Shown one piece after another: positions 1,577 to 64,000 of a stretch of DNA of 64,000 nucleotides. The DNA comes from Candidatus Gorgyraea atricola (lineage in GTDB: Bacteria > Omnitrophota > Gorgyraeia > Gorgyraeales > Gorgyraeaceae): contig JAVCCW010000029.1 in NCBI GenBank assembly GCA_030765235.1, forward strand, positions 76,939 to 140,938, in the 5' to 3' direction. The position numbers were made by a program, and so were the translations under genes. Below the pieces are notes generated by a model, which was not told where the DNA came from, did no database searches, and saw only the letters and a program-made list of their open reading frames with translations. The first letter of the stretch is position 1. Each line of letters begins with the position of its first letter.

Positions 1577-2469
1577 AGAAGCTATTATTGATAGTTTTAG
1601 TTTGTTTTTTTATTATTCCAACAGTAGTATCTGCTAAGGAATCACAGGAGGAACTTAAGACATATTTAACTCAAATGCACAGGATAGTTATGGAGGTAGA
1701 GGCAGCAATACGGATGATCAGCCTTAATCCCTTAGTAAGTGAATCTGTGACAGGGCAGATATCCAGATCTATAGAGAAGTTTGAAAACCTGAAATCACCT
1801 GTGGTTTTTTCAACAGATCATAATTCCATGCTTACTTCATTTAAACTCATAAGAGACGGACTAACGTTTATATTAAAACCTAACAAGAAACAAGAATCAG
1901 TGGATCTTGTAAAAAAAGGGGCAGATCTTCTAAGGAAGGCAGCTATGAATATAAAGACAAGGGCCGAGCAAGAAGGCCTTATACCCGAGAAGACGACTTC
2001 CACGACGTCTAAAAAAACTAGCTTACCTTCGCAGGCTCCATCAATGATCGCAGGTACACCGCCTATGCCTTCACCTCATATTGCTTCTCCTCAGATAGAG
2101 ACTATACTGACAACTACTACGATTAAGCCTTCTGCCAGTATTAGTGTGTCAGATACTGCAGGTGTATCTGCTATCCCAGCTATTAAAGTAGATTCACAGG
2201 GGGGTTCGGATCAGCCTGCTGTCTTGGCTGCGATTGGTGAAATAGCATCTGTGAAGTCGCAGGAAGATTATTTTATTGTAGAAATTTTGGATAATAATGG
2301 AAATAGCTTAGAAGTTGATATCACGCCAGGGCAGTCTACTATATTAAAAAATCATATCAGCGCAAATCCTCTTGATATCACAACAGGGTCTTCTGTTCAC
2401 GTGCTTTATACCCAAAAAGACAATAGAAATCTTGCAGGATTTGTCAATATTTTGGGATCTACTGATTAG
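1573..2469 (+). CDS. Secreted hypothetical protein with a Ser/Thr/Pro-rich linker
   Basis: The ATGA start overlaps the previous stop. Hydrophobic signal peptide (LLLIVLVCFFIIPTVVSA). Low-complexity T/S/P stretch in the middle. Confidence 0.5.
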   Translation: MKKLLLIVLVCFFIIPTVVSAKESQEELKTYLTQMHRIVMEVEAAIRMISLNPLVSESVTGQISRSIEKFENLKSPVVFSTDHNSMLTSFKLIRDGLTFILKPNKKQESVDLVKKGADLLRKAAMNIKTRAEQEGLIPEKTTSTTSKKTSLPSQAPSMIAGTPPMPSPHIASPQIETILTTTTIKPSASISVSDTAGVSAIPAIKVDSQGGSDQPAVLAAIGEIASVKSQEDYFIVEILDNNGNSLEVDITPGQSTILKNHISANPLDITTGSSVHVLYTQKDNRNLAGFVNILGSTD

Positions 2470-2805
2470 ATGCTGGATATTTCAAGAACCGAGAGATCTA
2501 TTATTTTGGCATTTCTTGTCATGGGCCTGCTTTATGCAGGCCTTTCTTATTATGTAAAGACAAAGACTAACTCTGAGATTAAGACAGTTCACATTGACGA
2601 ATCCCGCTTTTTAATCAATATCAACACAGCTGATAAATTTGAGTTAGAACGCCTTCCTGGCATAGGCCCGGTCATGGCAGGAGATATTGTAGCGTATAGA
2701 GAGACAATAGGGGAATTTACAGGCATAGAACAGCTCAAGGACATAAAAGGCATAGGTGATAAGAAGTTCGAGAAGATGAAGGAGATAGTAACTATAAATG
2801 AATAA
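2470..2805 (+). CDS. comEA: Competence protein ComEA (helix-hairpin-helix DNA-binding protein, N-terminal TM anchor)
   Basis: The C-terminal sequence LININTADKFELERLPGIGPVMAGDIVAYRE...GIEQLKDIKGIGDKKFEKMKE is a classic ComEA tandem HhH. An N-terminal TM helix is present. Confidence 0.8.
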   Translation: MLDISRTERSIILAFLVMGLLYAGLSYYVKTKTNSEIKTVHIDESRFLININTADKFELERLPGIGPVMAGDIVAYRETIGEFTGIEQLKDIKGIGDKKFEKMKEIVTINE

Positions 2806-2840
2806 AGGAGTTATAGATACCTTTCCTCGATGAAAAATTA

Positions 2841-2869
2841 TTGACAAAAAGGTTTTTTTGTAGTATATT
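2841..2869 (+). promoter_or_regulatory. Sigma70-type promoter for the 709-aa AT-rich ORF
   Basis: TTGACA, 17-nt spacer, TATATT. Confidence 0.6.
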
Positions 2870-2930
2870 ATAAATAGATTATAAATATAATTAAGAATAG
2901 TCTTGCTGCTACAGGATGAGGAGGAAAATC

Positions 2931-5045
2931 GTGTATAAAAAGCTAAATAAAATCATAGCTGTAATGATCTTGGCAATGTTTGTTTTTACCAACACAAGTT
3001 CTGCAGCCCTAAATGCTGGTACTCTAAGGATTCCTCTGGAGCTAAAGAGAGAAGAATTAAAACCCGATCTTGATTCTCAAACTACATATTTTCTTAATAT
3101 CCTCACGGCCATAGAAAAAGTTATTGATAAGAACTCTTTCCTAAAAAAAACCATACCTGGTAATTTTATTGAGACAATAAAAAGTAATGCACAGCAGCAA
3201 TCTTTTACCATTAATATGCTCAGTTTATATGTACAAAAGTATGACTGGATAATAAATGATTATATTAAACGCAAAGGGGTGGACAAACAAGTGGTACTTA
3301 ATGAAGTACAAAATGATATATATAAACCAATAATCGGATGTTTAGTTAAAATATCCAAACGTATACAAAATGACGATCTCGTGCCTAATGCAGTAAGCGG
3401 GTTAAATTTATCTATGAAGGATAATTTCGAACCCGCAGTTAACATAAAGAGGGAAGCAAGACTTGAATTATTGGGTATGAAGGGTGATCCCTGGCATGAT
3501 GGACATGTGTGGATGATACTGAATCTATTGGCTGATGGCGCTGATTTTGTGTCAGTTATGTTAGATAACAGCGATCCGGAACGTAAAGTTAATTTAACAG
3601 GGTTGCCTATAAGAGAAGCGGATTTCAAAGCCCTATTAAATGCAATGCAACCATTTGTCGGATATACTACTGTACAACGCGAAGATAAAAACTTATTCGC
3701 TGCTGATGCAGAAACCATATTTCCTGGATTGATCTATTTAAGGCGTAAAATTGCAGAGCTCATTAGAAATGGCTATAATGCAGGATTTGACCATTTTAAC
3801 TGGTTAAACACTAAGCATGAATATGTTCAACTCGATGTCCCATCCAAACTATGTCATGTCGTAACTAAACTTTTCAATTTGGGAATTAATGCAAAAATTA
3901 ATGTTAGATTTCATCATCGCGAAGGCGATAAAGTGGATGATCCTGAAATTATGGGAAAAGATAGAATTTTTGCAATGGAGGCAACAGCCAATAGAAACAT
4001 TATAGAATTTTTATCTGAATCTGCAGGAAAATTAGTCGAAGAAAAAATAGGTAAGGGAAAAGATGTGGCGTCATGGCAAAAGATATCTGAAGAAGTTAAT
4101 TCATGGAAGGAGAGAAAGATAAAAGATCTGGAAAGTTCTTTGAATGTGTTACAAGAAAAATATTATAAAGAATGGTTTATGCAAGGGAGAGAATTACTTT
4201 CGGATCCGTCTAGAAGTCCAGATCTAAAAACATGGCTAGATAGACTTGATTTATCAATGGATTCGATGAAAGGCATGAATTCACTACAGACTCTTTTGGA
4301 TTCTAAAACAGAGTCTATGCAGCAAGAGGTAATCAATGCCCTTAATCACCACATAAAGGCTCTACACATGAGCTTCGAAGTAGTTGATCAGCCAATGGAT
4401 GCTTCTTCTACAGGGGTAAGAGAACGTGGCGAGAATTATGCAGTGCCGCTATCTATTGTGCCTACATTAGAAGCGTTACAACGTTATCCTGCTTATATTA
4501 AATCTGAAACAGTGGAGACTGATAAGAAAATAACAACTGATATATTGGCAGATCTGATTGATCTTGACATTTTAAGTCTTGATAGTAGCAAAGGGATAAG
4601 AAAAGGAGAAATAATAGCTCATCTTGGCAAGAGCTTACCAGATTATGTTGATATTGATGTTTTGTTGAATAAACTTAACGAGCGCCTATCAAAAGGTCAA
4701 GACAAAAGCGCATTTTTATTTGTCACAAACACAGCATATGATACTGCTTTAGAGAAGTTTCAACGTTTATTAAGTTCTGCATACGGAAATGCCCTGCATG
4801 CAGTAGATAGTTATATAGTTAAATGTATGAATGATAAAAAATTTACAGATGAATTTGCAGCAGCTCGTGAAATTCCATCAGTAGATCTGGCTATAGATAA
4901 GCTCGATTCATTACGCGATCTTCTCATTAAAAATAGAGCTGATGAAATCTGCGTAACAGCTCGTAAATCATGGAATCCTACTTCACTCATTGAGAGAGTT
5001 AAGAATATCAAAAAATCTGGAAACGAAATAGGCAATAAGATATAA
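2931..5045 (+). CDS. Large AT-rich secreted hypothetical protein (about 705 aa), no recognisable domain
   Basis: ORF 2916..5045. The better start is GTG at 2931, preceded by GAGGAGG 6 nt upstream. Signal peptide MILAMFVFTNTSSA. A consensus sigma70 promoter sits at 2841..2869. GC is much lower than in neighbouring genes. Confidence 0.55.
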   Translation: MYKKLNKIIAVMILAMFVFTNTSSAALNAGTLRIPLELKREELKPDLDSQTTYFLNILTAIEKVIDKNSFLKKTIPGNFIETIKSNAQQQSFTINMLSLYVQKYDWIINDYIKRKGVDKQVVLNEVQNDIYKPIIGCLVKISKRIQNDDLVPNAVSGLNLSMKDNFEPAVNIKREARLELLGMKGDPWHDGHVWMILNLLADGADFVSVMLDNSDPERKVNLTGLPIREADFKALLNAMQPFVGYTTVQREDKNLFAADAETIFPGLIYLRRKIAELIRNGYNAGFDHFNWLNTKHEYVQLDVPSKLCHVVTKLFNLGINAKINVRFHHREGDKVDDPEIMGKDRIFAMEATANRNIIEFLSESAGKLVEEKIGKGKDVASWQKISEEVNSWKERKIKDLESSLNVLQEKYYKEWFMQGRELLSDPSRSPDLKTWLDRLDLSMDSMKGMNSLQTLLDSKTESMQQEVINALNHHIKALHMSFEVVDQPMDASSTGVRERGENYAVPLSIVPTLEALQRYPAYIKSETVETDKKITTDILADLIDLDILSLDSSKGIRKGEIIAHLGKSLPDYVDIDVLLNKLNERLSKGQDKSAFLFVTNTAYDTALEKFQRLLSSAYGNALHAVDSYIVKCMNDKKFTDEFAAAREIPSVDLAIDKLDSLRDLLIKNRADEICVTARKSWNPTSLIERVKNIKKSGNEIGNKI

Positions 5046-17927: not shown

Positions 17928-17956
17928 GGTAAGAAGTATTTAAAAGTCTTTAATTG

Positions 17957-19585
17957 ATGATCATGAAAAAAGTAATATTGATTTTAATAATATTGTCCCT
18001 CCTGACTCAAGGGCAGAGTTTTGCCTTGAGGCCGCGTTTGCGTTTTAATGAGCCAGAAATACTTAATTCAAATAAAGAAATTAATCCTGAAGACTATGCC
18101 ACAGGTGAAGAGATATCAATTACAAGTGGGCAGGTTATACCTATGCCAGACACAGACGGTATTTATGTGGTAGATTATCTACTAGAAAGATACGTTGATT
18201 CCGACGAGGCCAAGACAAGACTTTTTGCCATAGTCGAGAAAGAAGGAAAAGATATTATTGCCAAAATAATCTCCAAAGAAGATAATGGCACAATAAAACT
18301 TTGGGAAAAACATAAATTCATCAAAGGAAAATTTAAAAGTAAATACGGCAAATATGTTAGCGGCAAATGGAAACTTGTTTTCGTTAACATGGAAGCTTAT
18401 ATCACAGCTGAAGAAATGCCTCTTGTAAATAGATTTCCTACGTTTATTCCAAGAACCAATCAGGTACACTTACCGGATTACCTGATGAGATTATATCCCA
18501 ACATCAAGAGGATGATAGTAAAAGAAAAAGGCAATATTATTACTAAAATATTCTCTAGAGAAGATGGTAAAGTGATAGTCTGGGAAAGGTATAGGTTCAT
18601 TCCATGTGGGATTATAACGAGAGGCGGTGCATATTTTATTGGTAAATGGAAGCGCATTTTTTATCTAGAAAATTATACTGTCTCCAGAGAAATGCCTATT
18701 GCAGTAGTATCCCCGCGGTTGATACCAGAGGGAGAAAATAGACTCTATATACCACGTTATCTAATGGAAACCTATGTTAATCCTAACAAAGCCAAAACAA
18801 GACTTTTTGCTATGTTAAAAAAAGAAGAAGGCTATATTAACTGTAAAATAATTTCCAGAGAATCTGATGGAATAGTAAAATACTGGGGAAATCATAAGTT
18901 CATACTAGCCAAAATTAAAAAGCAGGGCGTAGAATTCGCTGGTAAATGGAAATTCGAATGGAGTAAAAGTTTTGTTGCTAAAAAGCCAAAAAGGGAAGTC
19001 GGTAAAAAAGAAGTCTCTAGAGAAAACTCTTCTAAAAAAATCTCTTTTTACCGCGAGCTCAAGAGGCAGTTGAAGATGGGAAATAAAATAAAAGACTATT
19101 ACAAGAGGTTAGGGCTAGGCATATATGCCACTACTGACGAGATAAAAAGGGCATATCGCATGTTAGTAATGCAGTTTCATCCTGATCAGGGTAAAGATTC
19201 AGATGCAAAGGTCTTTAAATTGATCAAAGAGGCATATGAAGTTTTAAAGGATCCCAAAAAAAGACAAAGTTATGACCGTTTCATGAGAAATAGTTTCAAA
19301 CCTACAGAGTTAAAGAAAATAAACAGTTACCTTGAGCGACCTGAGAATATAGGAGTAATTTTTCATTTTGACAAAAGGACGGGCAAGAGAGTATTCCTTA
19401 TTCCGCGTAAGGTTGTAGCTAAAGCTGTAAAGATAGATGTTGATCTAATCGACTGGGCTATTGAGAAACATAACTATCAACAACATAGAAAAACTGGAGG
19501 ATATTTCACCCCATTCTCCTTTCCACCTGAAAAGATGCTGAATAGTATATTAGAAACAGCAGACGCAGCACGGACAGATAATTAA
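17957..19585 (+). CDS. AT-rich membrane-anchored or secreted J-domain protein. Three ~100-aa tandem repeats are followed by a DnaJ (HPD) domain and a C-terminal domain.
   Basis: Signal or anchor peptide KKVILILIILSLLTQGQSFA. Three repeats share Y[LV].Y....KAKTRLFA....E....KIISRE.G.IK.W...KFI..K.K....F.GKWK. J domain YYKRLGLGIYATTDEIKRAYRMLVMQFHPDQ. Consensus promoter at 17899..17927. Confidence 0.6.
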   Translation: MIMKKVILILIILSLLTQGQSFALRPRLRFNEPEILNSNKEINPEDYATGEEISITSGQVIPMPDTDGIYVVDYLLERYVDSDEAKTRLFAIVEKEGKDIIAKIISKEDNGTIKLWEKHKFIKGKFKSKYGKYVSGKWKLVFVNMEAYITAEEMPLVNRFPTFIPRTNQVHLPDYLMRLYPNIKRMIVKEKGNIITKIFSREDGKVIVWERYRFIPCGIITRGGAYFIGKWKRIFYLENYTVSREMPIAVVSPRLIPEGENRLYIPRYLMETYVNPNKAKTRLFAMLKKEEGYINCKIISRESDGIVKYWGNHKFILAKIKKQGVEFAGKWKFEWSKSFVAKKPKREVGKKEVSRENSSKKISFYRELKRQLKMGNKIKDYYKRLGLGIYATTDEIKRAYRMLVMQFHPDQGKDSDAKVFKLIKEAYEVLKDPKKRQSYDRFMRNSFKPTELKKINSYLERPENIGVIFHFDKRTGKRVFLIPRKVVAKAVKIDVDLIDWAIEKHNYQQHRKTGGYFTPFSFPPEKMLNSILETADAARTDN

Positions 19586-56930: not shown

Positions 56931-57833
56931 ATGGACACATACGGCATAATAGGTTATCCAGTAAAACATAGTTTATCTCCAGCAATGCACAATGCTGCGT
57001 TCAAAAAACTCGGCATCGACGCAGAATACCGCAAATTCGAAGTAAAACCCACCGAGCTGGAAGGTTTCTTGCTTGGAAATATTTCAGTTAAAGATACAGA
57101 TGGAAATCCTATACATGCTGGACAAGTAAAGGGGTTTAACATAACTATTCCGCATAAGGTAAAAGCGAAAGAAATATTAGAGAAGAAATTTCCTAACGCT
57201 TCATCTGATTCTGATATTGCTTTATCAGGAGCAGTTAATACAGTTAAAAGAGTTGGAGATAAACTTGAATACAGAAATACAGATGTTTCAGGTTTTGGCG
57301 AATCTCTTGATAAAGATTTAAAATTTGGAGCATCAGAGCGTAAAGGAAGTAGCGTATTCATATTAGGATGCGGAGGAGTTGCTAGAGCAATTATAGCGGA
57401 TTTAGAGAATTCTCATGTTCGTAAGATATATGTTTATGATATAGATAAGAATGCCGTAGATTCGGCAGAGAATCATTTTTCAGGTCTTTCAGGTAAGCTT
57501 GAATTTGTTCGTCAGCAAAAGGAAATAAATAACAAGATAAAAGATTGTAAATTATTAGTCAATGCTACACCTATAGGCATGGAACAAGACGATGAGTCTC
57601 CTATAGACAAGAAATTGCTTCATAAAGATTTATATGTTTATGACGTTGTTTACAATAGACAGACTCAGCTTGTAAAGGACGCATTTGCATCAGGGGCTAA
57701 GGCTGTAACAGGAGAAGGCATGCTTGCTTGGCAAGGAGTATTAGCTTTTTTCTGCTGGATAGATAGATGTAAGCCTGTTGATGATGTTATAGGGGTAATG
57801 AGGCAGGCATTGGATAATGCCTTAGAAAGGTAA
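56931..57833 (+). CDS. aroE: Shikimate dehydrogenase (compositionally mosaic; the middle and C-terminal part is AT-rich)
   Basis: N-terminal GIIGYPVKHSLSPAMHNAAF, NTD motif, Rossmann motif LGCGGVARA. Confidence 0.75.
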   Translation: MDTYGIIGYPVKHSLSPAMHNAAFKKLGIDAEYRKFEVKPTELEGFLLGNISVKDTDGNPIHAGQVKGFNITIPHKVKAKEILEKKFPNASSDSDIALSGAVNTVKRVGDKLEYRNTDVSGFGESLDKDLKFGASERKGSSVFILGCGGVARAIIADLENSHVRKIYVYDIDKNAVDSAENHFSGLSGKLEFVRQQKEINNKIKDCKLLVNATPIGMEQDDESPIDKKLLHKDLYVYDVVYNRQTQLVKDAFASGAKAVTGEGMLAWQGVLAFFCWIDRCKPVDDVIGVMRQALDNALER

Positions 57834-57838
57834 GCTTT

Positions 57839-58016
57839 GCACTCCCCAGACCAGTAGGGCGAGAGGCATCGTTGGGCCGAGCGGGCACGGTGCCTAACCT
57901 GACACTTTAAGTATGACTTAAAGTGTCAGGTTAGGCGAGCGAGGAACAACAATGAGAAAAAATTTCCTCGCTGGGGAAATTTTTGCGCCCTCTCGACCTA
58001 CTGGTCTGGGGAGTGC
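57839..58016. repeat. Composite nested inverted-repeat element between aroE and pilD. 28-bp terminal inverted repeats (1 mismatch) enclose an inner 20-bp-stem hairpin.
   Basis: Terminal repeat GCACTCCCCAGACCAGTAGGGCGAGAGG at 57839..57866 pairs with CCCTCTCGACCTACTGGTCTGGGGAGTGC at 57988..58016. Inner hairpin CCTAACCTGACACTTTAAGT...ACTTAAAGTGTCAGGTTAGG at 57893..57935. Confidence 0.8.
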
Positions 58017-58027
58017 AGACATTTGAT

Positions 58028-58798
58028 ATGATACATTTAGTCGTTTTTATCTTTGGTTCAATGATCGGGAGTTTTTTGAATGTGTGCATATACAGGATAC
58101 CTAGGGAGGAGTCTATTGTTTCTCCTGGTTCAAGGTGTACCTCCTGCGAAAAGCCAATACTGTGGTATGATAATATCCCTTTATTAAGCTATGTTATTTT
58201 AATTGGCAAGTGCAGGCATTGCAAAAAAAGAATATCCTTTCGCTATTTCGCAGTTGAACTCATAAGCGCACTCGCGTTCTTAACACTGTTTTATTATTTT
58301 GGATTAACCGCGAAGTTCTGGATCTATAGCCTGGTGACATTCGCTCTTATCGTAACGACATTTGTCGACCTGGAATTCCAGATCATACCTGACAGGATCA
58401 GTCTTGGCGGCCTGGTCTTAGGAATCATTTTAAGTATCTTAATACCGCAGCTTCATAATAGTCTTACATGGGAAACAGGATTTATGAAATCTCTATTGGG
58501 TATGTTTGCGGGCGGCGGACTCATATATCTTACAGGTTATGTCGGCCAGATCATATTCAAGAAAGAGAGCATGGGCGGAGGAGATGTAAAACTTATGGCT
58601 ATGCTGGGCGCTTTTCTGGGTTGGAAAATGGCAATACTCATATTTTTTCTCGCGCCATTTTTCGGCACACCCGCGGGCCTGTATTTGAAATTTAAGAAAA
58701 AACAGGATATAATTCCCTATGGGCCCTATATAGCGTTGGCCAGCTTTGTCGCAATGATCTGGGGCCGCAAAATATTGAATATGTTATTTTTTTATTAA
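58028..58798 (+). CDS. pilD: Type IV prepilin leader peptidase (A24 family). No N-terminal zinc-finger or methyltransferase extension.
   Basis: MIHLVVFIFGSMIGSFLNVCIYRIP, tetracysteine CTSCEK...CRHCKK, a catalytic Asp-containing segment. The track start at 57983 lies inside an inverted repeat, so ATG at 58028 is preferred. Confidence 0.75.
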   Translation: MIHLVVFIFGSMIGSFLNVCIYRIPREESIVSPGSRCTSCEKPILWYDNIPLLSYVILIGKCRHCKKRISFRYFAVELISALAFLTLFYYFGLTAKFWIYSLVTFALIVTTFVDLEFQIIPDRISLGGLVLGIILSILIPQLHNSLTWETGFMKSLLGMFAGGGLIYLTGYVGQIIFKKESMGGGDVKLMAMLGAFLGWKMAILIFFLAPFFGTPAGLYLKFKKKQDIIPYGPYIALASFVAMIWGRKILNMLFFY

Positions 58799-58998: not shown

Positions 58999-60042
58999 AT
59001 GCTAAGATTTTTAACTGCTGGTGAATCACATGGTGAAGCGCTTGTTGGTATTTTAGAAGGCATGCCTAGTGGGCTAAAGGTAGACAAGGTCTTTATAGAT
59101 AACGAACTCAAACGTCGTCAACAGGGCCATGGACGTGGTAACAGGATGAAGATAGAGAATGACCACGCAAAGATCCTGTCCGGATTAAAAACTAGCCTCA
59201 CTATTGGCAGCCCCATAGCCATTCTCATAGAAAATAAGGATTGTTCAATAGATAAACTGCCTGATGTAAAAAATGTGCGGCCTGGCCATGCAGACCTTGT
59301 AGGGATTTTAAAATATGGTTTCAAAGACGCCCGTCCTGTGCTTGAACGCTCATCTGCCAGAGAAACAGCCATGCGTGTTGCAATAGGTGCAATCTGTAAA
59401 CTGCTTTTGCAGGGATTCAAGATACGCCTGTCAAGCCACGTCACAATGATAGGCGGCGCTGAGTCAAAAGATAAGATGAAAGAAAGAATAGATAGCGCAA
59501 CTGCTAAAAAGGATACGCTCGGCGGGCAATTCGAGGTTGTAATAAAAGACGTGCCAGTAGGCCTGGGCAGCTACGCGCATAGTGACAGGCGGTTAGATGC
59601 AAGGCTCGCCGCAGCCATCATGTCCATCCCAGCTATCAAGGCAGTTGAAATCGGCAGCGGCATTGAATCCGCGAAAAAACTCGGCTCAAACGTGCACGAC
59701 GAGATATTTTACTCCAAGGCAAAAGGCATTTACAGAAAGACAAACAATGCCGGAGGCATTGAAGGCGGCGTATCAAATGGCGAAGACATAATCGTGCGCG
59801 GCTACATGAAGCCCATAAGCACCTTGATGAAAGGGCTAAACACAATAGATATCTCTACAAAAGAAGCAGTAAAGGCAGCCACAGAGCGTTCTGATGTATG
59901 CGCTGTTCCCGCGGCAGGAGTAATAGGTGAATCAGTTGCTGCATTCGTAATAGCTAATGCCTTGCTTGAAAAATTCGGCGGGGATAGTGTTCTAGAAATA
60001 AAAAGGAATTACGAGGGATATTTATCCAGCCTAAAATCTTAA
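58999..60042 (+). CDS. aroC: Chorismate synthase
   Basis: MLRFLTAGESHGEALVGI... is a typical AroC N-terminus. RBS GGAGG at 58988. Confidence 0.9.
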   Translation: MLRFLTAGESHGEALVGILEGMPSGLKVDKVFIDNELKRRQQGHGRGNRMKIENDHAKILSGLKTSLTIGSPIAILIENKDCSIDKLPDVKNVRPGHADLVGILKYGFKDARPVLERSSARETAMRVAIGAICKLLLQGFKIRLSSHVTMIGGAESKDKMKERIDSATAKKDTLGGQFEVVIKDVPVGLGSYAHSDRRLDARLAAAIMSIPAIKAVEIGSGIESAKKLGSNVHDEIFYSKAKGIYRKTNNAGGIEGGVSNGEDIIVRGYMKPISTLMKGLNTIDISTKEAVKAATERSDVCAVPAAGVIGESVAAFVIANALLEKFGGDSVLEIKRNYEGYLSSLKS

Positions 60043-60651
60043 GGTAAGGGACGTACTCACGTAGTCAGTGTCGAGTGCGTGAATCCTATCTGTGTGACGC
60101 CAGCCAATTCCAACTGAAAATAAATCAACAGGCGCGTAGAGTATTTCAGCTATTGACTCACAATATTCATCCCTTCCTTTTTCAAGATTAATCGAGTATT
60201 CTTCAAAGAGACGCAAGGAAAATACTTCTAAAAAAGGTACTTCCAGTCCGACTTTTGTAGTCGTATCAAAGGAATAACTGTCTGCATCAAAGACCAGATA
60301 ATCTAACATCTCGCCAGATATGAATTGAAAGGATTGACCTACATAAAAATAGTCTGAAAAAGATTTCCCTATCTCTAATCCAGATAAGAGCTTTTCCCAT
60401 TCGTCTGTTTCCATGTTCCACTGCGCTTCTCCAAAAAACGAAAGCTCTGTATCAGACGAATCCAATTTTTTATGAATGGAAAGCCGCTCCATGGCAATGT
60501 CGCCGTCATCCCTTCTTACATCCACGAGATAGTCAGTTCTACTCTCTACCTCGACGCTAAATCCAGGATTCGCAAACAGCACCAACATTAATAATACCAG
60601 AATTATCTTCATATTTTTGTAAAGCATATCATATAACATCATGACATTCAA
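60031..60651 (-). CDS. Secreted hypothetical protein (possible outer-membrane or periplasmic). The start may be an internal Met at 60612.
   Basis: Signal peptide MKIILVLLMLVLFANPGFS. Alternating hydrophobic pattern and a C-terminal F-ending segment suggest a beta-rich OM protein. Divergent from aroK. Confidence 0.45.
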   Translation of the reverse strand: MNVMMLYDMLYKNMKIILVLLMLVLFANPGFSVEVESRTDYLVDVRRDDGDIAMERLSIHKKLDSSDTELSFFGEAQWNMETDEWEKLLSGLEIGKSFSDYFYVGQSFQFISGEMLDYLVFDADSYSFDTTTKVGLEVPFLEVFSLRLFEEYSINLEKGRDEYCESIAEILYAPVDLFSVGIGWRHTDRIHALDTDYVSTSLTLRF

Positions 60652-60714: not shown

Positions 60715-61215
60715 ATGAAGAATGTTGTGCTGGTTGGATTTATGGGGACTGGGAAGACTGTGGTGGCAAAGAGGCTTGCGGAGAAGCTGAAGAGGGAATT
60801 TCTGGAGCTGGATGCGATCATTGAGAAGAGAGAGGGCATGTCCATTAAGGATATATTCGAGAAAAAGGGTGAGCCATACTTCAGGGAGCTTGAGAAAGAG
60901 GTCGTGAAAGCATCGAGCCAGAAACAAGACCTTGTAATATCTGCAGGCGGCGGCGCAATAATAGATGAAGAGAATTTCAATACCCTTAAGCCAAATAGCA
61001 TTATAATCTGCCTCCAGGCCTCACCTGACACAATAATGCAGCGTACAAAAGGCAATGTCTGCCGCCCACTCCTAAACGTGTCAGACCCAAAGAAGAGAAT
61101 AGAAGAGCTCCTAGCAAAACGAGCCCCCTATTACAAAAAAGCAAACCACTGCGTCCCCACTGACAACCTCACCATAGACCAGGTAGTCGACCAGATCTCA
61201 AAACTCCTTGCATAG
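60715..61215 (+). CDS. aroK: Shikimate kinase
   Basis: P-loop GFMGTGKT, followed by the DxD and LID region. 166 aa. Confidence 0.85.
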   Translation: MKNVVLVGFMGTGKTVVAKRLAEKLKREFLELDAIIEKREGMSIKDIFEKKGEPYFRELEKEVVKASSQKQDLVISAGGGAIIDEENFNTLKPNSIIICLQASPDTIMQRTKGNVCRPLLNVSDPKKRIEELLAKRAPYYKKANHCVPTDNLTIDQVVDQISKLLA

Positions 61216-61323
61216 CCCCTATTTATATGCTATAATTACATAAGAATCAATAGACTGCTAACAAGCCTTAATAAAGGGCTATTTTTTGTCTGGATTATGA
61301 TTATGTTTAAAAAAGGGTATAAT

Positions 61324-61470
61324 GTGAAGATAATATTTATAGCAATAGGCCTAACTTTATTGCTTAATGGCATATGTTTTGCCCTGCGTATACCAATCGA
61401 TCCAGAAAATATAGAGAAACGTTTTAAGGGATTTAAGAATTTAAAAGCAGAAGCTGCATTCGAAACATAG
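61324..61470 (+). CDS. Possible small secreted peptide ORF (48 aa, GTG start). Very uncertain; may instead be the 5' leader of the downstream gene.
   Basis: Signal-like IIFIAIGLTLLLNGICFA. AAGGG 6 nt upstream of the GTG. A TATAAT hexamer at 61318..61323 overlaps it. Confidence 0.2.
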   Translation: MKIIFIAIGLTLLLNGICFALRIPIDPENIEKRFKGFKNLKAEAAFET

Positions 61471-61523
61471 GATTTTCTGGAAGGCGTGAACTAGGAATTG
61501 CAAGGGCGATTGATCAGACAGAG

Positions 61524-63437
61524 ATGGGGCTAGATGACGATGTTTTAATTGTAGGTCAAGGAGGTACGATTTATTTACCAATGGCTTGTGCTGTTAGAGC
61601 GAAAAGAGTAGACATAGTCCAGCCTGATAGATCCGAGAATGTTAAGCAGCGTAAACATTTGAAAGATAAATTTGATCATATGAGAATTTTTGAGGCTGGA
61701 ACATTGCAAGCTTATTTAGTCAATAAGATTGATATCGATAGCTATAGAGGCTTAATTGAAAATGTAAGAGTTCCCAAAGGACATTATCGTTATGTGTTTA
61801 TACCTGCTGTTTTGGATTATCTTAATCGTTTTGCACGTAGTAAAAAGGAAAAACTTGTCAAAGCTATTTTATCTACTCTTAAAGACGATGCAGTCGTACT
61901 CATATCTACACTAAGCGGAAATACGAAAATTACAGTGAAGCAGGAAGCTGATTTTTTTCAAGAATATGCAAAGAGTCATGGTTATGAGATTACAGGAAGA
62001 AGAGCGCTGAGGCCTGTTCATACTTTAGGCGGAAGCCCTACTATCGAGCTTAAGATAAGTCGAGAGACAAGGCATGATGCAGTCAAAAAAATTGCAGAAG
62101 AAGTTTTGGGAGATATCGAGAGAATGTGGCATAGGATGGTAAAAGATCAGGAGTTAATTTTTGAAATAGTTAGCGATAGGGATTTATTTGAGTCCATTCC
62201 AACAGATTTAAGGAAAGATATTCCTTATGCAGCGTTGCATCAAGTAGGCCTAAATATTACTTTAATTTATGGAGATCTCCAGTATCTGATGGAAAAAGGG
62301 CAACCATATGTGATTGAGAAGATGTATAAGAGCTTGTTGCTAATCGAACCAGATTTAAAGACGATGATAAAACTTAATCGAGATGAGATGATAGAGGTCT
62401 TAAACCGAGGTTTAAGACTTAAACTAGGAACGCTCAGTAATAAAAAAGATGATATTGGTCCTATTGATGAATTAGCGCGTCAAACTATTCAGGCTGTTTT
62501 GGATGGAATAGAGGTAGAAGAAGATAAGCTATTAGGGATTCGAGATGTTCTTCCAGAAACCATCAAAATTATTACTGAGCTCAGAAGAATGATTACTGAA
62601 GAAAAATTAATCATTAAAATAGAAGAAGATGAGTTTGTGATTCTGAAGGAGCTGTATACTAATGTGTATAAGGCTGATGATTCAAAAAGACAAAAGAAAG
62701 TAGTGCTTAAGTTTCAAGGAGATAGAAATAGCTCAGTATACGAAAAAGCCTTCTTCGAGCTAGTTCCTCCTCATGATAATATAGTTAAAGGATATGCTTT
62801 AGAAGATGAATCAGGAAAGATCTTGATTGTACAAGATTTTATTGAAGGCAAGACATTAGAAGACTATAGTGATTTAGAAGGGGTGGATCATAAACGTTAT
62901 TATAAGGAGTTATTCCCGATATTATTAGAGAAATTTGTAGAAGCAGTTAACGCGGAAAAACACGTATTAAAGAATGACCAAAGGATGTTTTATCATGAAT
63001 TTGATTTAGATCATATCATTATCGATGAAACTAGGGCAGGAAAACCTATCCTGATAGACTTTAATGAGCCCGCTCCTAGGCAAATTGAGAAAAAAGTTAT
63101 TTCAAATATTGGAAACTCATTATGTAAGTTAGTTATGGCGCAGTTATACAGCGATGACGAAGATGATCTTTCTGAATATGGTATAGATGATGACGATCTT
63201 AATAAGGATGATTATGCTGTTAACGCAAAAAAAATCTGTCCATATGTTTCTGATGAACTAAACCAGATACTAATGAGATTTGCAGCGAGTAGTACTAATC
63301 CTTATGAAGATATAGATGAATTAATCAATGATCTTGAAGTTGTGCTAGACTATCTCAAATCACAATTTTCTCCATCCGAGAGTATCGAGTCTTTGTTGAA
63401 TAACGGTAATCTCGAGACCTTGAGAAAGCAGTTATAA
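61524..63437 (+). CDS. AT-rich 637-aa hypothetical protein. N-terminal Rossmann-like segment and a C-terminal atypical protein-kinase-like (ePK-like) domain with an acidic tail.
   Basis: DVLIVGQGGTIY (Rossmann or MTase-like motif I). In the C-terminal half: VVLKF (VAIK-like Lys), HDNIVKGY (HPNIV-like), ILIVQDFIEG (hinge-like), HEFDLDHIIID (catalytic-loop-like), ILIDFNE (DFG-like). Confidence 0.5.
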   Translation: MGLDDDVLIVGQGGTIYLPMACAVRAKRVDIVQPDRSENVKQRKHLKDKFDHMRIFEAGTLQAYLVNKIDIDSYRGLIENVRVPKGHYRYVFIPAVLDYLNRFARSKKEKLVKAILSTLKDDAVVLISTLSGNTKITVKQEADFFQEYAKSHGYEITGRRALRPVHTLGGSPTIELKISRETRHDAVKKIAEEVLGDIERMWHRMVKDQELIFEIVSDRDLFESIPTDLRKDIPYAALHQVGLNITLIYGDLQYLMEKGQPYVIEKMYKSLLLIEPDLKTMIKLNRDEMIEVLNRGLRLKLGTLSNKKDDIGPIDELARQTIQAVLDGIEVEEDKLLGIRDVLPETIKIITELRRMITEEKLIIKIEEDEFVILKELYTNVYKADDSKRQKKVVLKFQGDRNSSVYEKAFFELVPPHDNIVKGYALEDESGKILIVQDFIEGKTLEDYSDLEGVDHKRYYKELFPILLEKFVEAVNAEKHVLKNDQRMFYHEFDLDHIIIDETRAGKPILIDFNEPAPRQIEKKVISNIGNSLCKLVMAQLYSDDEDDLSEYGIDDDDLNKDDYAVNAKKICPYVSDELNQILMRFAASSTNPYEDIDELINDLEVVLDYLKSQFSPSESIESLLNNGNLETLRKQL

Positions 63438-63541
63438 AGCCCTGGATATAAAGCCCTGGAGACGTCTACCAAGTTGTTCGGGAAGCTGTCTTCAAATCAA
63501 TCGGGAAACTGTCTGTAGTGTGGGTGGTTATTTTTAAGACT

Positions 63542-64000
63542 ATGACATTGTTTAAGAAAAAGTATAATTCAGGGATTAAGGGAGCATTGTCGACTTTTGT
63601 AGTGCTGTTTTTGCTTGCAGGATCTTTGCGCGCGGATGATTTTCTTAGAGTGAGAATAGATGACTCTACGCATACCCGTATACGTGAAATGTGTGGGATG
63701 TACTATAGTTTGGAGTCAACTGTAACAACACAAGTTGCTTTAATGGAGATAGGGAAAATTGAACAGATAGGAAGGCAGACAATCCCGTTCTATGAAAGTA
63801 AATACCAGAAGCCACTATTTGTTACTACGATGGTCGCAAGAGATTTTATAAATGACGGTAGGGCTGTTGGCGGCTATAAAAATCGAGATAAAAGTATCAA
63901 AGGGCTTTCGTTTGTTTTGGTGGCCACTGATCTTGCTGTATCTGAGGTAATAGGTTTTGAGCTCAACCCTAAAATCAGAGTTGGGCCAAAAGGCGAATTA
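63542..64000 (+). CDS. Secreted hypothetical protein, 3'-partial (runs off the window)
   Basis: ATG at 63542. Signal peptide ALSTFVVLFLLAGSLRA. Open frame to the end of the window. Confidence 0.4.
   Translation, partial: MTLFKKKYNSGIKGALSTFVVLFLLAGSLRADDFLRVRIDDSTHTRIREMCGMYYSLESTVTTQVALMEIGKIEQIGRQTIPFYESKYQKPLFVTTMVARDFINDGRAVGGYKNRDKSIKGLSFVLVATDLAVSEVIGFELNPKIRVGPKGEL

Follow-up and report, generated by a model that had tools for sequence, protein, structure and literature searches.

A probable single leader-bearing gene, cut by a one-base frameshift, for a methyltransferase-fold and pseudokinase-like modular protein in Candidatus Gorgyraea atricola

Omnitrophota are uncultivated nanobacteria that are thought to live as predators or parasites, and their giant multi-enzyme proteins are too large for direct study. 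Very long proteins have been catalogued in this phylum, especially in the class Gorgyraeia, and 94% of those catalogued carry signal peptides or transmembrane segments, with methyltransferase, GNAT, HATPase, and radical S-adenosylmethionine (SAM) domains tiled along their length (bioRxiv 10.64898/2026.06.07.730766; West-Roberts et al. 2023, bioRxiv 10.1101/2023.11.21.568195). Moreover, loci for type II secretion or for pili often adjoin the long-protein genes, and extracellular, prey-directed roles have been proposed for the products (bioRxiv 10.64898/2026.06.07.730766; 10.1101/2023.11.21.568195). Here, we describe a locus in a 64,000-nucleotide stretch of DNA from Candidatus Gorgyraea atricola (GenBank assembly GCA_030765235.1, contig JAVCCW010000029.1, positions 76,939 to 140,938 of the forward strand; hereafter the window), where an open reading frame (ORF) of 637 residues runs from ATG through to stop at 61524..63437 (+). 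On balance, we judge it somewhat probable that this locus is a single gene, cut by a one-base frameshift, from a family of modular proteins with leaders that is confined to Omnitrophota. When rejoined, the product has 713 residues: the leader comes first, followed by a domain of class-I methyltransferase fold, a helical module, and a domain of kinase fold, and a short conserved tail closes the C-terminus. With the archaeovorin-type giants it shares the phylum and class, a putative N-terminal signal peptide, and modules of the tiled methyltransferase/GNAT/radical-SAM type; in fact, the same methyltransferase-like and kinase-like modules sit inside Omnitrophota proteins of 3.4-7.4 thousand residues. 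In contrast to those giants, the protein is short (637 residues, or 713 when repaired, against more than 10-100 thousand), has no transmembrane arrays, SecA-like or peptidase domains, with its one hydrophobic segment lying in the leader. As far as the window reaches, which leaves out the downstream context, only a prepilin peptidase gene lies nearby, 2.7 kb upstream, and no full type II secretion or pilus locus. In the term-searched text of both preprints, we found no Hanks-type kinase modules (PF00069), short paralogs, or LR(P) leader motif.

The 637-residue ORF is present as the initial annotation had described it, and its product matches the hypothetical protein P9L93_06235 at 100% identity, as found in a word-indexed search of 5.8 billion proteins. 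Upstream of it, a signal-peptide ORF of 48 residues had been proposed; a leader-like ORF does lie there, though it has 57 residues when read from its ATG, and the length of 48 results only from an internal GTG start. The 57-residue leader shows a basic n-region (MIMFKKGYNVK), a hydrophobic core, and the context CFA↓LRIPID (the arrow marks the candidate cleavage site), followed by KAEAAF, which stands at the end of this ORF, in the other frame from the main one, and matches the pre-domain helix of the family, [S/T/K]AEEVF. A like beginning is seen in the relative P0002, where the N-terminus MIRFKKGYNLIVIFIAI...LRLPID parallels MIMFKKGYNVKIIFIAI...LRIPID of the 57-residue ORF. The main frame is open from 61437 and so overlaps the leader frame by 34 nt (61437-61470), and a single A added at 61463-65 joins the two into the 713-residue product. 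Here, we noticed that a profile built on the pre-domain region in the relatives finds homology in the main frame from nt 61467 (E 1.7e-19), starting 19 codons before the annotated ATG, and that the annotated Met (61524) is aligned to an internal Ile in the conserved IDxLxIG segment of the family. The family-profile score rises from 41.3 bits for the product from ATG 61524 to 57.7 bits when the main frame is extended 5' of it, and stands at 58.0 bits for a slip at an upstream heptamer and 61.0 bits when one A is restored at 61463-65. Moreover, the 713-residue product aligns in single stretches with intact relatives, residues 3-267 with 14-298 of P0006 (E 3.5e-29) and residues 6-176 with 6-189 of P0020 (E 1.4e-26). 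Based on the upstream homology, the profile scores, and this continuous alignment, we infer that the 57- and 637-residue ORFs were once one gene and that a one-base insertion or deletion parted them. As assembled, the locus would then represent a copy that lost its function recently, a cytoplasmic version made without the leader from ATG 61524, or an assembly error, and a real mutation and an assembly error appear about equally likely. The remaining 60 kb of the window holds dense, long, contiguous ORFs without frequent breakage, which argues that the assembly is not generally poor, though a single homopolymer error is possible.

For the N-terminal module, an AlphaFold2 model from a 23-sequence alignment (predicted local distance difference test (pLDDT) of 91.9 and predicted template modelling (TM) score of 0.86) showed alternating β/α elements and a terminal β-hairpin in a seven-stranded Rossmann-like fold. 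A Foldseek search of the PDB with this model returned 763 matches at E<=1e-3, and all of these were class-I SAM-methyltransferases, with NNMT, INMT, and PNMT as the best (TM score ~0.6, identity ~12%). At the sequence level, the best PDB profile match was phosphoethanolamine N-methyltransferase (E 9e-4), nine of the 23 trimmed relatives matched Methyltransf_23 weakly and below threshold (best E 1e-4), and hhalign of the domain family against human NNMT, for which an approximate query sequence was used, aligned only 20 columns, too few to map residues. At the level of the predicted model, the class-I methyltransferase fold of this module is thus established, and the Rossmann or methyltransferase-like domain suspected in the initial annotation was borne out by that model and its 763 matches. 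With class-I methyltransferases (Pfam Methyltransf_23/11), the module shares the fold, the terminal β-hairpin, the GxG loop after β1, and a motif order of VLxVGxG, VDIVQP, YSYVFLLNVLD, and LKDxAxILIS. The GxG loop is retained in VLIVGQGG, with Gly11 invariant among the 23 family members. Methyltransferases usually have an acidic ribose-binding residue at the end of β2. Here, β2 spans residues 28-33 and ends in Gln33-Pro34 without such a residue, and in the family column Gln reaches at least 90% and Pro is invariant, with just one of the 23 aligned members having Asp (VDVVDP); the near-invariant Gln-Pro of VDIVQP replaces the acidic residue. A further difference from NNMT-type enzymes is that their substrate-binding cap is not found in the module, which has ~12% identity to them and lies below all Pfam cut-offs. 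With the GxG loop kept, though with Gln in place of the usual acidic residue, it is plausible that the module may still bind SAM.

A bilobal kinase fold was predicted for residues 362-637, with pLDDT mostly above 90, and the model gave at least 1964 PDB kinase matches at E<=1e-3, including Staphylococcus aureus Stk1/PknB (TM score to target 0.63-0.65). Direct scans of the 637-residue protein against Pfam, PDB sequences, NCBIfam, and PADLOC yielded nothing above threshold, only hints. The protein alone scored only 12.5 bits against Pfam Pkinase (threshold 31.7), but 22 of 35 relatives match PF00069, with a best E of 6e-37. The family profile matched 285 distinct PDB kinase sequences, foremost the RNase L pseudokinase domain (E 8.9e-11), MSK1, MELK, and S. 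aureus Stk1/PknB. Profile and structure searches thus confirmed both the eukaryotic-type protein kinase fold and the class-I methyltransferase fold. The motifs that the initial annotation had read as a kinase-like order, namely VVLKF (393-397), HDNIVKGY (417-424), ILIVQDFIEG (433-442), HEFDLDH (491-497), and LIDFNE (510-515), are all present and fall in the β3-Lys, β4, β5/hinge, catalytic-loop, and DFG columns, respectively, of the family with the 22 Pfam-matching members, so that their order is no accident. We took residue equivalences from the family alignment anchored on solved kinases, and checked the HRD column against MSK1 and RNase L. With Hanks-type kinases and the RNase L pseudokinase the module shares, besides profile homology, the β3 Lys, the αC Glu, and the DFG Asp (Lys396, Glu407, and Asp512), the last being at least 90% conserved in the family. 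Unlike Hanks-type kinases, it has Phe for the HRD Asp, His for the Asn, no Gly-rich loop (no Gly occurs among residues 372-392), and a 21-residue acidic C-lobe loop. Its setting differs as well, with a secretion-type leader ahead of it and a methyltransferase-fold domain as fusion partner. The catalytic loop also shows a one-residue deletion relative to the family form HGDIRxDH. An earlier suspicion of a pseudokinase, raised from the missing catalytic-loop Asn, was therefore well founded and can be widened, as the HRD Asp is absent too. Since the HRD Asp, the Asn, and the Gly-rich loop are lost while Lys396, Glu407, and Asp512 remain, the kinase-fold module is, as judged from its residues, a pseudokinase. 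In the closest relative, P0003 (46-48% identical), the loop reads NEF-AIYH, with no Asp and with Phe at the HRD-Asp position, whereas more distant leader-bearing relatives retain the D...N pair (P0036, HGDVHSGN; P0010, HSDIHLKN; P0030, KGDIHSDN), which suggests that the clade of this protein and P0003 is a pseudokinase lineage from apparently competent ancestors. The acidic stretch, earlier described as a poly-acidic tail, proved to be a loop inside the C-lobe, which is followed by a conserved PY(I/V)xDELNxIL helix and about 70 further residues. A separate family of leaderless kinases of ~320 residues (P0014, P0018, P0024, and about 25 others) has the signature ...RFG..D.PK.WVK...HGDIRxDH...WIDFD...PYIP..LN.IL, with His for the catalytic-loop Asn; apart from the leader-bearing group, they are the closest relatives that the Omnitrophota kinase-like module has, and a curated family name for them was not found.

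In the search for relatives, the word-indexed collection gave only the protein itself and the partial relative P0002, while HMMER, run exhaustively over 1.84 billion cluster representatives, gave 63 relatives, which fall into three modules (Table 1). All relatives with a source name come from Omnitrophota; a scan of species-representative genomes with the 637-residue protein and a tight N-domain alignment found no relatives. The N module occurs internally in proteins of 3382-7381 residues, and the kinase-like module in proteins of 1789 and 6938 residues. The modules also recombine with others, as seen for CN_hydrolase in P0003, GNAT in P0040 and P0017, and radical SAM in P0010, and second methyltransferases are carried by P0006, P0021, and P0027. 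Between P0002 and the 637-residue protein the domain order differs, as the middle module precedes the methyltransferase module in the former and comes after it in the latter, though both end in the same tail, GNL(E/K)TLR(K/H)QL, which directly documents a rearrangement of domains within the family. As a separate observation, the C-terminal endings in the family are not randomly distributed, with Q-x-L or QL closing the short members and Ala, often A-A, the long or giant ones. Leu is the last residue in nine of 32 family C-termini (binomial p=0.002). P0012, P0015, P0016, P0027, and P0045 end in ...SPAxQAL and the protein studied here in ...LRKQL, with P0002 and P0005 also in the set compared, and the long proteins P0010, P0021, P0030, P0033, P0040, P0047, and P0053 end in ...QAA, ...IAA, or ...VAA. 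These endings could be a sorting or processing tag.

Within the window, four copies of the leader family start at 2916, 48014, 61297/61524, and 63542. The LR motif (LR(P/A/I)) is found at residues 28-50 in all 16 leader-bearing proteins, a set assembled partly by eye, compared with 17% of background stretches of the same size. The ORF that follows the 637-residue one had been described as a secreted protein running off the window; its hydrophobic N-terminus and its truncation by the window end are as described, and it can now be identified as a paralog of the leader family. Its cargo has no Pfam match, and neither a homolog nor its own full-length parent was found in the 5.8-billion-protein collection; the source record may have left the ORF without annotation or labelled it a pseudogene. 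The "small secreted ORFs" that seemed to flank the 637-residue ORF are thus the gene's own leader on one side and a paralog on the other. As for base composition, the 637-residue ORF has a GC content of 0.35 (0.28 at third codon positions, GC3), far below that of aroK (0.47), as noted before, and below that of the window (0.425), which places it in the lowest 1.3% among equally sized stretches of the window. In fact, the four family genes together have a GC3 of 0.21-0.37, against 0.46+/-0.06 in the other 50 ORFs (Mann-Whitney p=0.0009), and on three other Omnitrophota contigs the family genes again exceed their surroundings in AT content, so that low GC is found in four genomes. Because the three other low-GC ORFs just listed belong to the same family, low GC is a trait of a dispersed family and not of one island. 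In the related loci L001, L002, and L003, as in the window, family genes stand in tandem and differ in their cargo. Together with the low GC, the paralogs, both tandem and dispersed, and the permuted order of domains suggest that the family evolves fast and shuffles its domains. Low-GC genes outside the leader family are also present in the window, these being a DnaJ-domain protein gene (17954-19585; GC3 0.33) and aroE (56931-57833; GC3 0.26). Around the relatives, we also observed in L001 an IS200/Y1-type transposase gene (1552-2184) between the paralogs P0002 and P0005 (neighbours at 17-1414 and 2334-3794), with a PhdYeFM/YoeB toxin-antitoxin pair after this stretch, and in L003 an MNT/HepT pair directly upstream of two family genes.

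As judged by eye, the family leaders have a basic n-region, a hydrophobic core of 12-18 residues, and small residues at -3/-1, with CFA↓L, AFA↓Y, VYG↓L, and LRA↓D as candidate cleavage contexts. With these features placed before the LR motif, the intact 713-residue protein would be exported by the Sec pathway. A lipoprotein signal was rejected, as the lipobox is absent. Separately, the three closest N-termini (those of 61297-61330, P0002, and P0003) read [K/R]KG↓YN(L/V) and then a hydrophobic stretch, resembling a prepilin (class III) site, and a prepilin peptidase gene (A24; 57983-58798) lies 2.7 kb upstream inside the ilv/leu/aro block; a prepilin-type leader is not favoured, as there is no Glu at +5 and the Gly is missing in most family members. 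Once exported, the protein would have its site of action beyond the cytoplasm, or at the surface or in the interior of a host or prey cell, like the phylum's long multi-enzyme proteins; its kinase module would not phosphorylate but would bind either a partner protein or a ligand, which might be a nucleotide, and its methyltransferase module may bind SAM. Our best guess, then, is a protein that is exported, has a binding or modifying role, and is akin to those multi-enzyme proteins. A more far-reaching version, which we consider unlikely, would have a so far unrecognised Omnitrophota family of short, Sec-exported, domain-shuffling enzymes and pseudoenzymes, "mini" relatives of the giant proteins whose modules act in the host or prey. 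Such a family would be defined by the leader, made up of a signal peptide and an LR(P/A/I) motif close to the N-terminus of the mature protein, the C-terminal Q-x-L/A ending, and interchangeable cargo; the modules would use host SAM and adenosine triphosphate (ATP) or bind host targets, and the giant proteins would be concatenated effector modules. Secreted kinase-fold effectors and pseudokinases are known from Legionella (LegK and SidJ) and Pseudomonas (HopBF1), and these do not act until they have reached the inside of another cell, in which ATP can be had. By analogy, they share with the present protein a kinase-fold module with an export signal, in some cases catalytically atypical, though the likeness is one of general description; they differ in having type III or type IV secretion signals, not a Sec leader, and delivery by Omnitrophota is hypothetical.

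Several points weigh against reading the locus as a split gene for an exported protein of this kind. Export is predicted from leader features that were judged by eye. Neither SAM nor ATP is expected outside the cytoplasm, and an exported methyltransferase- or kinase-like protein thus needs a special explanation, which would have to be delivery into another cell or a non-catalytic role. The N module scores 12.8-15.1 bits against a Methyltransf_23 cut-off of 27, falls under every Pfam threshold, and is without the acidic residue that canonically follows β2. The model of the middle module is of low confidence (pLDDT about 45-65). In the catalytic loop, Asp494 or Asp496 could in principle replace the lost catalytic Asp. 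As for the frameshift, placement at the A run beats other sites in the 61437-61470 overlap by only ~3 bits, and a single assembly exists, in which the frameshift may be real or an artefact.

The solution that would do away with the difficulty of SAM and ATP is that the annotation is correct as it stands, with the 637-residue protein being a leaderless cytoplasmic methyltransferase-pseudokinase that starts at ATG 61524 and serves inside the cell as a regulator or scaffold, and the 57-residue ORF encoding an independent small secreted or membrane peptide. The 637 codons are intact behind a usable ATG, the methyltransferase domain is modelled with confidence even when the upstream segment is left off, and a weak ribosome-binding site is no objection, as about half of the window's genes are without a strong Shine-Dalgarno (SD) sequence; the strength of these sites gave no discrimination among the candidate starts. 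However, this reading leaves the same-frame family homology over 19 codons upstream of the ATG, the pairing of the annotated Met with the internal Ile of IDxLxIG, the family leader and pre-domain helix in the 57-residue ORF, and the colinearity of the repaired product with intact relatives without a place, and we consider it improbable. Alternatively, the two frames could be joined in translation by programmed -1 ribosomal frameshifting at T_TTA_AAA (61440-61446), aided by the SD-like AAGGGA (61425-30). The required shift is indeed -1, an X_XXY_YYZ heptamer is in the correct phase within the 34-nt overlap, and the SD-like element lies 9 nt upstream of it, but no stable structure was found downstream (z-score against shuffles, +0.3 to +1.1). 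In this gene, a heptamer of the kind is met at 0.6% of codons, which gives a chance of ~0.07 in an 11-codon window, the zero-frame homology in KAEAAF extends beyond the heptamer, the A-run repair outscores the heptamer slip (61.0 against 58.0 bits), and the two-frame arrangement was found in no relative. With the downstream structure absent, heptamers common in this AT-rich gene, and homology favouring a shift site 3' of the heptamer, the idea was rejected as hardly credible.

A further possibility, in our estimate a slim one, is that the C-terminal module is an active atypical enzyme in which Asp494 or Asp496 serves as the base and His497 as a metal ligand, or which performs another nucleotide-dependent reaction. 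Such a reading would draw on the retained Lys396, Glu407, and Asp512, on the two Asp residues that flank the lost position, on the His that stands for Asn throughout the wider HGDIRxDH family, and on the constraint implied by 46-48% identity to P0003 over the domain; it is difficult to square with the loop of P0003 being without any Asp, with the absent Gly-rich loop, and with the deletion in the catalytic loop, and a pseudokinase remains our preferred assignment. The initial annotation had also suggested an AT-rich accessory island with a signalling, toxin, or defence module, which would be a horizontally acquired one and, for defence, directed against phages. The GC content low relative to the neighbours, weak partial matches to the defence kinases PD-T4-6 and MAD6, and the toxin-antitoxin pairs and IS200-like transposase near relatives in L001 and L003 speak for it. 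Yet the defence matches amount to 13-25 bits over 35-85 residues, against cut-offs of, e.g., 460 bits, and reflect generic kinase similarity (PADLOC, 13-19 bits over 36-86 residues; NCBIfam MAD6, 17.1 bits against the cut-off of 460). MADS couples a kinase with methylation functions. What is shared with PD-T4-6 and MADS MAD6 is a generic Ser/Thr kinase fold, while partner genes and a mobile context are lacking here and the catalytic residues are dead. Moreover, no tRNA, integrase, or flanking repeats were found in the window and no phage or plasmid relatives, an Rfam scan of the window found no elements, the neighbours are housekeeping genes (ilv, leu, aro) that differ among loci, no conserved partner gene was seen across the related loci, and low GC is common to all family copies wherever they lie, in four genomes. 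An island of this sort is thus very unlikely, and while the initial annotation is right at the level of folds, its reading of island, defence module, and flanking ORFs is not supported.

Table 1. Features of the locus, its paralogs in the window, and the modules found in relatives (aa, amino acids)
Feature	Position	Strand	Remark
Dispersed paralog, 709 aa	2916..5045	+	leader ...SSAALNAGTLRIPLELK (...GTLRIPLELK); GC3 0.28; no Pfam match
Dispersed paralog, 347 aa	48014..49057	+	leader MIKFKK...VYAAPNLRPNS; GC3 0.21, the window's lowest; no Pfam match
aroK	60715-61215		upstream neighbour of the leader ORF
Terminator-like hairpin and T-run	61264..61280	+	between aroK and the leader ORF
Leader ORF, 57 aa	61297..61470	+	probable detached 5' end of the gene; ATG 61297
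AAA run	61463..61465	+	putative place of a one-base deletion or of an error in assembly
Coding-quality stretch IGFSGRRELGIARAIDQTE	61467..61523	+	main frame, upstream of the annotated ATG; homologous to ...A.MIDxLxIG
Class-I SAM-methyltransferase-fold domain, aa 1-190	61524..62093	+	motif I VLIVGQGG; signature VDIVQP
All-helical middle module, aa 193-371	62100..62636	+	common only to P0002 and P0005
Hanks-type kinase-fold domain, aa 372-620	62637..63383	+	degenerate; predicted pseudokinase
β3 (VAIK) Lys, Lys396	62709..62711	+	retained
αC Glu, Glu407	62742-62744	+	retained
Catalytic-loop remnant HEFDLDH, aa 491-497	62994..63014	+	Phe493 at HRD-Asp, His497 at Asn
DFN, aa 512-514, DFG-equivalent	63057..63065	+	Asp512 retained
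Acidic loop DDEDDLSEYGIDDDDLNKDDY, aa 544-564	63153..63215	+	internal to the kinase C-lobe
C-terminal tail GNLETLRKQL	63405..63434	+	common with P0002 (GNLKTLRHQL)
Downstream paralog, cut by the window end	63542..64000	+	leader MTLFKKKYN...LRA↓DDFLRVRID
Module N	residues 1-190		many relatives, including internal positions in 3.4-7.4-thousand-residue proteins
Module M	residues 203-357		two proteins only
Module C	residues 363-621		many relatives

The surroundings of the locus consist of housekeeping genes (ilvD-ilvB-ilvN-ilvC-leuA-aroE, the prepilin peptidase gene, aroC, and aroK). The hairpin with its T-run between aroK and the leader ORF weakly suggests a separate transcription unit for the latter; terminator-like sites in the scan were as many as shuffling would give. 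A TATAAT box had been proposed upstream of the leader, but it carries no weight, as promoter-like sites numbered 11 against 11.5 expected in shuffles. Between aroC and aroK, on the opposite strand, lies an ORF of 206 residues (60031-60651, -) that has a signal-peptide-like N-terminus and the C-terminus ...TSLTLRF, and is without a match in Pfam, NCBIfam, or PADLOC. A C-terminal Phe is typical of outer-membrane β-barrels. Lastly, a perfect 14-nt tandem duplication (TATAAAGCCCTGGA x2; 63433-63460) extends across the stop codon of the 637-residue ORF.

Taken as a whole, the finding is a new architectural variant in the repertoire of Omnitrophota modular proteins and reveals no new mechanism by itself; to the known repertoire, the locus adds Hanks-type kinase and pseudokinase modules. 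It also offers a worked example of misleading annotation, in which a leader split off by one base mimics a "small secreted ORF" beside a "cytoplasmic" enzyme. More broadly, the modules of the giant proteins also exist as short proteins of 250-700 residues, which have a common leader, are present several times in a genome, and show clear signs of shuffling. Should the family be exported, these short proteins would provide tractable handles on the function of the giant proteins' modules.

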